Below the pieces are notes generated by a model that had not been told where the DNA came from, searched no databases, and worked only from the letters and a program-made list of their open reading frames with translations. A stretch of DNA of 1,309 bases, from NCBI RefSeq assembly GCF_003334355.1, contig NZ_QOWP01000089.1. One strand, 5' to 3'. Position 1 is the stretch's first letter. The number at the start of each line of letters is the position of its first letter. Shown here piece by piece: positions 1 to 1,309 of the stretch. The translations under genes were made by a program, and so were the position numbers. This DNA comes from Escherichia coli (GTDB lineage: Bacteria; Pseudomonadota; Gammaproteobacteria; Enterobacterales; Enterobacteriaceae).

Positions 1-25
1 TGAACCGCCCCGGGTTTCCTGGAGA
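1..25. repeat. Terminal inverted repeat, IRR relative to transposase orientation
   Basis: Seen in sequence: positions 2-13 (GAACCGCCCCGG) are the exact reverse complement of 1298-1309, and positions 17-25 (TCCTGGAGA) are the exact reverse complement of 1286-1294. Positions 14-16 (GTT) mismatch the partner (AAA). Overall about 21 of 24 paired positions match. Position 1 (T) has no partner inside the window. Confidence 0.85.
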
Positions 26-42
26 GTGTTTTATCTGTGAAC

Positions 43-933
43 TCAGGCTGCCAGATCATCGTTTCCGATGGAAGCATAATAAGCTTTTTCTGCTTCTGCC
101 GGAGGAGTATGGCCCAGCCTTCCCAGCAATCGTCGATTGTTATACCAGTCCACCCACGTTAGTGTGGCCAGTTCCACTTCTGCACGGTTTTTCCAGCTCT
201 TACGGTGTATTACCTCCGCTTTGTAAAGACCATTGATGCTCTCAGCCATCGCGTTGTCATACGAGTCGCCTGTACTCCCTGTTGATGCCAGTAATCCGGC
301 TTCTTTTAGTCGCTCCGTATAGGCCAGTGACACATACTGAGAGCCTTTATCGCTGTGATGGATGGTGCCAGACGGACGACGGGCCCACAACGCCTGCTCC
401 AGCGCATCCAGCACGAATGTCGTTTCCATAGACGATGAGACCCGCCACCCCACGATGTATCCGGCAAACACATCAATGATAAACGCCACATAGACGAAGC
501 CCTGCCATGTGCTGACGTAAGTAAAATCAGCCACCCACAGCTGGTCAGGTCGTTCTGCCACGAACTGACGGTTTACGCGGTCGCCTGCGGCAACGGCTTT
601 CCGGCTGATGGTCGTACGGACCTTTTTACCCCGGAGAACACCGGCAAGTCCCATAACCGCCATGAGACGTGCCACTGTACATCTGGCCACCCTGATTCCT
701 TCCCGTAACAACTGACGCCAGACTTTACGCACACCGTACACCTGATGATTTTCATCGTATACGCGCTGTATCTCTCTCTTCAGCCAGTCGTCGTGCTGCG
801 CACGGGCACTGCGTTTATCCGGATGATGTCGCTGTTGCTGACAGTGGTAATACGTTGACGGGGCAATATGCAGTTCGCTGCATACCGGTCCGACCCCGTA
901 CTGCTCACGCAGCTTATCCAGCAGTGGCATCAT
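43..933 (-). CDS. IS3-family transposase OrfB (DDE / integrase-like catalytic domain; C-terminal part of OrfAB)
   Basis: Seen in sequence: 296-aa ORF, ATG at 933..931 (a second ATG follows at 930..928), TGA stop at 45..43. It lies in the -1 frame relative to orfA. Catalytic triad by motif inspection: D136 in LWVADFTYV (nt 526-528), D195 in HHSDKGSQY (nt 349-351), E231 in [15 protein letters not shown] (nt 241-243). D195 to E231 leaves 35 intervening residues, i.e. the DD(35)E arrangement of retroviral-integrase-like transposases. No internal stops or obvious truncation. Confidence 0.9.
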
Positions 934-941
934 TTTTTCCA
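928..941 (-). other. Putative programmed -1 ribosomal frameshift window (A6 slippery run) overlapping the orfA stop and orfB start (ATGA overlap)
   Basis: Seen in sequence: minus-strand 5'-TGG AAA AAA TGA TG-3', with the A6 run at + coordinates 933..938. In the orfA frame this reads W-K-K-stop; in the -1 frame it reads E-K-M-M and continues into OrfB. Established knowledge: IS3-family elements make the OrfAB transposase by -1 frameshifting on A-rich heptamers (A AAA AAG and similar) near the end of orfA. Inference: this A6 run is the shift site. The exact heptamer here (G AAA AAA, followed by a UGA stop) is not the canonical A AAA AAG. Confidence 0.6.
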
Positions 942-1256
942 GAGGCGGTCGAACTCCGCCTTCGCAAAATAAGCGGAAGCCTGGCGAAGGATATCGTTAC
1001 TGCGGCGCAGTTCACGATTTTCACGTTCCAGCTCTTTCAGACGCTGACGTTCAGCGCTGGTGAGCCCACCATCACCGCCCCCGGTATCCCGCTCATGCTG
1101 GCGAACCCAGACACGCAGAGTCTCCGGCGTACAGCCAATCTTTGGGGCAATGGAACAAATTGCCGCCCACTGTGAGTCATATTCATCCTGACTTTCCAGA
1201 ACCATACGAATCGCCCGCTGACGGACTTCGGGGGAAAAACGAGTATTTTTAGTCAT
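930..1256 (-). CDS. IS3-family transposase OrfA (DNA-binding / regulatory subunit; N-terminal part of the OrfAB fusion transposase)
   Basis: Seen in sequence: 108-aa ORF with ATG at 1256..1254 and TGA stop at 932..930, preceded by a Shine-Dalgarno-like AAGAGG 8 nt upstream. Protein features: a likely helix-turn-helix region around residues 28-52 ([25 protein letters not shown], about nt 1101..1175), a Gly-rich linker (DTGGGDGGL), and a heptad series L76-L83-L90-F97 (about nt 966..1031) consistent with the leucine zipper known for IS3-family OrfA proteins such as IS911 OrfA. Family assignment rests on recalled similarity. Confidence 0.9.
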
Positions 1257-1264
1257 CCTGTTTA

Positions 1265-1270
1265 CCTCTT
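1265..1270 (-). promoter_or_regulatory. Shine-Dalgarno sequence for orfA
   Basis: Seen in sequence: minus-strand AAGAGG (+ strand CCTCTT at 1265..1270), with 8 nt between the GAGG and the orfA ATG at 1256. Confidence 0.6.
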
Positions 1271-1285
1271 TCTCAGGGAGTTTAG

Positions 1286-1309
1286 TCTCCAGGATTTCCG
1301 GGGCGGTTC
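1286..1309. repeat. Terminal inverted repeat, IRL (upstream of orfA)
   Basis: Seen in sequence: reverse-complement partner of positions 2-25 as described for the IRR. The window ends ...CGGGGCGGTTC; a terminal A to pair with T1 (giving the usual IS3-family TG...CA termini) would lie at position 1310, just outside the window. Confidence 0.85.

Follow-up and report, generated by a model that had tools for sequence, protein, structure and literature searches.

The window analysed here is a stretch of 1,309 nucleotides of Escherichia coli DNA, and it consists of a complete and undamaged copy, read on the minus strand, of IS1203/IS629, an insertion sequence of the IS3 family. Two overlapping open reading frames, in frames 0 and -1, lie between its terminal inverted repeats, and the features of the element are as follows.

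1 to 1309, minus strand: IS1203/IS629 (IS3 family); the element is 1310 bp long, and its final A alone is missing from the window
1 to 25: right terminal inverted repeat (IRR), on the downstream side of orfB and starting with TG
43 to 933, minus strand: orfB (296 aa), an uninterrupted open reading frame in the -1 frame relative to orfA
265 to 555, minus strand: integrase-type catalytic core, OrfB residues 127-223 (Pfam rve, E=6.3e-26)
622 to 795, minus strand: HTH_21 domain of OrfB, residues 47-104 (Pfam PF13276, E=1.3e-17)
844, minus strand: copy-specific synonymous base; His30 of OrfB is CAC here and in a plasmid match described below, and CAT in every other copy examined
930 to 1256, minus strand: orfA (108 aa), an uninterrupted open reading frame whose product has a helix-turn-helix and a leucine-zipper-like heptad of L76, L83, L90 and F97
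1286 to 1309: left terminal inverted repeat (IRL), on the upstream side of orfA; the window ends just before its outermost base

The two genes overlap in the sequence ATGA, and the orfB frame is open upstream as far as position 996. The inverted repeats begin TGAACCGCCCCGG and agree at 22 of the first 25 positions and at 29 of the first 40, a one-base offset being allowed; this offset arises because the window ends one base short of the element. The next base in matching public records is an A, so that the whole element measures 1310 bp and has 5'-TG...CA-3' ends, and with this flanking base included both the size and the ends are those of the IS3 family (about 1.2-1.55 kb, with TG...CA repeats), as is the arrangement of two overlapping genes in frames 0 and -1. 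The initial annotation had described both genes as neither truncated nor interrupted and both terminal repeats as present, and this description holds, one repeat being without its terminal base within the window only. NCBIfam model NF033516, for IS3-family transposases, scores 316.3 bits on OrfB against a cut-off of 160, which together with the Pfam rve match rules out a chance origin of the OrfB match. The helix-turn-helix of OrfA corresponds to Pfam HTH_Tnp_1 (E=1.6e-10, residues 1-87), and a Pfam search with the fused protein recovers rve, HTH_21, rve_3 and HTH_Tnp_1. Open reading frames on the plus strand, such as that at 855-1175 (106 aa), lie opposite the transposase genes, antisense to them, and were taken as mechanical.

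Assignment to IS629/IS1203 rests on near-identity in both DNA and protein to copies that RefSeq names IS1203. The DNA is 99.9-100% identical over its full length to copies under that name. The closest known system is IS629/IS1203/IS1203v, an IS3-group element from Shigella sonnei and Shiga-toxin-producing E. coli; the literature takes IS1203v and IS629 for the same kind of element, and the window shares with them the 1310-bp length, the TG...CA ends and, in related copies, duplications of 3-4 bp. The sole 100% match to the window lies on plasmid NZ_CP045828.1 at 38609-39917, and there are thousands of matches at 99.9%, annotated 'IS3-like element IS1203 family transposase'. Comparison of copy number among complete E. 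coli genomes places matches to the window at 31,376 sites in 4,253 of 5,426 genomes, with up to 53 in a single genome; the RefSeq label on matching copies reads 'IS3-like element IS1203 family transposase, programmed frameshift', and it is accompanied by an 'AL1L pseudoknot' feature. The exact OrfA sequence is present on at least 1000 contigs, and the exact OrfB sequence on 425, where one of the source names, 'Genes for Stx2 variant A and B subunit, ORFa and ORFb', is that of a Stx2 gene record. The exact OrfAB sequence (junction ...AYF/CEGG..., the slash marking the join) is on 394 contigs under the name 'MULTISPECIES: IS3-like element IS1203 family transposase'. The element is already known and well studied, and the result is the correct annotation of one more intact copy, with nothing in it that is biologically new.

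The widespread O157:H7 copies lie one synonymous base away from the window. A G on the plus strand at position 844 separates this copy from 11 other examined copies and from the 99.9% matches, and thus from all copies of IS629/IS1203 examined save the plasmid match. The base lies 15 nt 3' of the model of the ALIL pseudoknot described below, and so outside it, and is a possible marker of the origin of the copy.

The transposase of the IS3 family is an OrfAB fusion produced by -1 ribosomal frameshifting, and since it is this frameshifted protein that is active, an intact catalytic triad is insufficient on its own for competence. The initial annotation had left this requirement out; we checked the frameshift signal and, as far as can be predicted from its sequence and folding, it is intact, with a slippery motif and a downstream RNA structure of the kind that characterises the family. 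Its components, and one alternative site, are these.

859 to 975, minus strand: ALIL (apical loop-internal loop) pseudoknot, a full-length match to Rfam RF01497 (121.5 bits, gathering score 50, E=9e-33)
859 to 897, minus strand: stem-loop II of the ALIL pseudoknot, present in the centroid fold
933 to 938, minus strand: A6 run just before the orfA stop, an alternative and less likely frameshift site adopted in some database entries
944 to 960, minus strand: stem-loop I of the ALIL pseudoknot, also present in the centroid fold
966 to 969, minus strand: U_UUU slippery tetramer, the likeliest -1 frameshift site, in frame (UAU UUU GCG) and decoding OrfA F97

Stem-loop I follows the U_UUU tetramer after a spacer of 5 nt. 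U_UU.U is among the shift-prone tetramers of the IS3 family, in which stimulatory structures begin 4-10 nt past the motif (PMC4066793). The tetramer falls at F97, the last position of the L76/L83/L90/F97 heptad, and this fits the description of the family, which places the shift in the zipper's last heptad. Only 2 of 5,705 RefSeq E. coli records depart from the T4 run. We consider U_UUU most likely to be the real shift site. The A6 run was dropped as the primary site; it lies downstream of stem-loop I and so is ill-placed for that stimulator. A shift at either junction yields an OrfAB protein of 404 aa with its triad at D244, D303 and E339. Annotation of the junction is inconsistent in the public protein databases, where the ...AYF/CEGG... 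form stands beside one joined at the A6 run (...LWKK/MMPL..., entry P0047, on 158 contigs) and a third, ...AYFGEGG..., in entry P0056.

An ALIL frameshift pseudoknot has been characterised in IS3411, another IS3-family element (PMC5009743), and the Rfam model that the window matches over its full length is built around IS3411-type signals. Judged by eye, five Watson-Crick pairs and one G-U pair can form between GUUCGA, in the apical loop of stem-loop I, and UCGGAC, in the internal loop of stem-loop II; the corresponding loops of the Rfam consensus being GCUCGA and UCGAGC, the loop-loop contact has apparently been retained through a one-sided change. The arrangement differs from that of IS2 and IS150, which use an A_AAA_AAG heptamer, whereas the element in the window most likely relies on the U_UUU tetramer with the ALIL pseudoknot.

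One IS1203/IS629 copy (L009:1447-2757, in GCA_011853625.2, CP088028.1) is 1311 bp long and has T5 rather than T4 at the U_UUU run. The additional base joins orfA and orfB in a single frame, so that OrfAB would need no frameshifting there, and this copy could be a natural mutant with a constitutive transposase, or else the extra base could be a sequencing error in a homopolymer. Of the 5,705 RefSeq E. coli records, only 2 have the T5 stretch as their best match.

Comparison of insertion sites identified ten further loci, in ten different contexts, at which an identical OrfAB is encoded by elements that differ from the window by 1-3 synonymous bases. Seven of these ten have their own 3-4 bp target duplication, and one genome contains three identical copies with duplications of GAC, ACAC and CAG. 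The presence of an identical OrfAB at dispersed sites with their own duplications requires that elements encoding it transposed recently. When all 12 copies checked are counted (none with more than three synonymous differences, and the CP088028.1 copy with a 1-nt indel in addition), 3-4 bp duplications are present in eight; the window, which stops inside the element, includes no flanking DNA of its own. Around the O157:H7 copy in NZ_CP017446.1 the match is in two pieces spread over 2.4 kb (3054639-3057046), in an ariR-ymgC-ymgA region with ymgA listed twice, which suggests a more complex local arrangement.

We predict that this full-length IS1203/IS629, with all of its parts intact and an OrfAB mechanism like that of the rest of the IS3 family, is as transposition-competent as the canonical element, and assign this reading a probability of about 0.88. 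The initial annotation had proposed a copy that looks competent for transposition, and the proposal is supported, on sequence grounds, by the intactness of the parts, by identity with mobile copies and by the known activity of IS629. On this last point, the IS629 literature describes the element as mobile in E. coli O157:H7 with OrfAB as its transposase, and reports that OrfAB-dependent excision is abolished in DDE mutants. The same literature ranks IS629 first in abundance among the insertion sequences of O157 Sakai, reports insertion sites that vary among related strains, and describes a stx2::IS629 insertion that arose within one farm lineage.

It is improbable, in our estimation, that this copy, for all its intact sequence, is in effect unable to move from its present site and serves only as a passive repeat for homologous recombination; such immobility could come about through the level of OrfAB output, through inhibition by OrfA or OrfB, or through host factors. 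Published figures put excision at about 2.6e-6 with the native orfA/orfB arrangement, as opposed to about 1e-3 with a fused OrfAB, and the activity is described as strongly host-dependent (O157 versus K-12) and IEE-dependent. A low frequency of this kind, however, is the normal regulated state of IS3-family elements rather than inactivity. No sigma-70-like promoter was detected when the linear element was scanned, and this is in keeping with immobility; it also fits the weak native promoters of the IS3 family, and it provides no evidence of expression. The NZ_CP045828.1 copy, identical to the window, has no target duplication, yet elements encoding the identical protein, with 1-3 synonymous differences, occupy many sites with fresh duplications, three of them in one genome, and IS629 insertion sites are reported to vary among closely related farm isolates.

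The surroundings of the NZ_CP045828.1 copy (L001:2689-4330) have features of their own. On its left flank is a truncated transposase gene, a 104-aa 'transposase' coding sequence whose stop codon is the insertion sequence's own terminal TGA, and on its right a traH truncated at the N-terminus precedes a frameshifted traG; the sequence ATGTAC is present on each side of the copy, offset by one base. These flanks suggest an IS-associated rearrangement in the plasmid transfer region, and because there is no duplication and there are truncated genes on each side, the last event of this copy may have been a rearrangement and not a simple insertion. A stronger version, in which the copy, in the transfer region of this conjugative-type plasmid, put an end to plasmid transfer by actively bringing about a deletion or rearrangement next to the IS, is speculative and rather unlikely; if true, plasmid immobilisation driven by IS629, possibly with the help of IEE, could be seen here in a live example.

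The competence we predict also depends on the catalytic residues of OrfB, which lie at the following positions.

526 to 528, minus strand: D136 (OrfAB D244), first catalytic aspartate, GAT, in strand 1 (residues 132-142); aligns with IS2 D240
349 to 351, minus strand: D195 (OrfAB D303), second catalytic aspartate, GAT, directly after strand 4 (residues 191-194); aligns with IS2 D306
241 to 243, minus strand: E231 (OrfAB E339), catalytic glutamate, GAG, in the first turn of helix 4 (residues 228-242); aligns with IS2 E342
220 to 222, minus strand: K238, a conserved basic residue seven positions past E231, identified in alignments

The assignment of D136, D195 and E231 in the initial annotation, with canonical spacing and three conserved motifs, is borne out by the minus-strand translation of 43-933: 58 residues separate D136 from D195 and 35 separate D195 from E231, and the motifs WVADFTYV (residues 133-140), HHSDKGSQY (192-200) and a third (228-240) are all located in OrfB. 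The characterised relatives aligned with it were the K-12 OrfB proteins of IS3 (InsF), IS2 (InsD) and IS150 (InsK). These elements share with the window a two-gene layout in frames 0 and -1, the architecture of OrfB and the D, D(35)E and K columns, and differ in that their OrfB identity is only 20-29%; across the four-way alignment of IS1203, IS3, IS2 and IS150, D136, D195, E231 and K238 are nonetheless invariant. The catalytic triad of IS2 OrfAB is D240, D306 and E342, and a W237R substitution three residues ahead of D240 abolished its transposition (PMC3219604). In a rebuilt IS2 OrfAB, positions 240, 306 and 342 are D, D and E and share alignment columns with D136, D195 and E231, columns also occupied by D, D and E in InsF and InsK; W133 of OrfB corresponds to IS2 W237. 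The D, D(35)E signature of the IS3 family, with K or R seven residues past the glutamate, is thus found in OrfB by alignment to characterised members. A K-12 IS911A fragment was used as the query for a full-length IS911, and the matches listed were all K-12-type copies of the same fragment.

Conservation was also examined in a broader alignment of 31 sequences, comprising OrfB, 27 diverse representatives (41-63% identity) and the three K-12 proteins. The diverse set came from a search of a representative library, a word-indexed homologue search having returned near-identical IS1203 proteins only. D136 and D195 are each conserved in 31 of 31 sequences, E231 in 30 of 31 and K238 in 28 of 31. A single-sequence search of PDB sequences with OrfB gave no match, and the profile of the 31-sequence alignment was needed to detect the core structures of avian sarcoma virus (ASV) integrase, at E about 7e-7. 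The ASV residues aligned with the triad are the aspartates in WQTD and KTDNG and the glutamate in MVER, with D/D/E spacing of 57 and 36, which fits D64, D121 and E157, the established catalytic residues of that enzyme.

An AlphaFold model of OrfB (pLDDT 90.9) has the order strand 1, strand 2, strand 3, helix 1, strand 4, helix 2, strand 5 and helix 4, an RNase H-like arrangement, and the structures that match it best are those of TnsB, IstA, MuA and retroviral integrases; no IS3-family transposase was among the PDB sequence or structure matches listed. In the RNase H-like superfamily strands 1 and 4 bear the catalytic aspartates (PMC3219604). The likeness to the retroviral integrase core (ASV/RSV and HIV) extends from the fold to the placement of the residues, with an aspartate on strand 1, an aspartate after strand 4 and a glutamate on helix 4, and to the 35 residues between the second aspartate and the glutamate. 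Retroviral integrases differ from OrfB in having about 15-20% identity and other N- and C-terminal domains, and in integrating a reverse-transcribed copy, in contrast to the IS3 family's transposition by copy-out-paste-in. There is very little chance that the triad is misassigned and that its first member is D154 (in IIDVF), itself invariant in 31 of 31 aligned sequences, since the published IS2 D240 shares a column with D136 and not with D154, the ASV WQTD aspartate aligns with D136 while D154 aligns with the non-catalytic VTVD aspartate, and the model puts D136 on strand 1, one of the two strands that bear catalytic aspartates in this fold, and D154 at the end of strand 2.

With D136, D195 and E231 as the triad, a plausible course of transposition can be set out from the literature on the IS3-family elements IS911, IS2, IS3 and IS629. 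Ribosomes translating orfA would slip back by one base, most likely at the U_UUU tetramer at 966-969, with stimulation by the downstream ALIL pseudoknot. The product of the slip would be the 404-aa OrfAB fusion, whose N-terminal helix-turn-helix and leucine zipper are expected to bind the inverted repeats. In its C-terminal RNase H-like domain, D244, D303 and E339 would coordinate the metal ions needed to cleave the 3' ends and carry out strand transfer. Transposition would then proceed by copy-out-paste-in through a circular intermediate, leaving target duplications of 3-4 bp; the route by way of a figure-of-eight and a circle bearing a junction promoter is known for the IS3 family and implied for IS629.

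IS629/IS1203 outnumbers every other insertion sequence in E. coli O157:H7. Genes, stx2 included, are inactivated by it, and it drives small deletions and the diversification of strains. An intact copy such as the one described here, whether on a plasmid or on the chromosome, can credibly be expected to go on giving rise to such events and is useful as a marker for typing.
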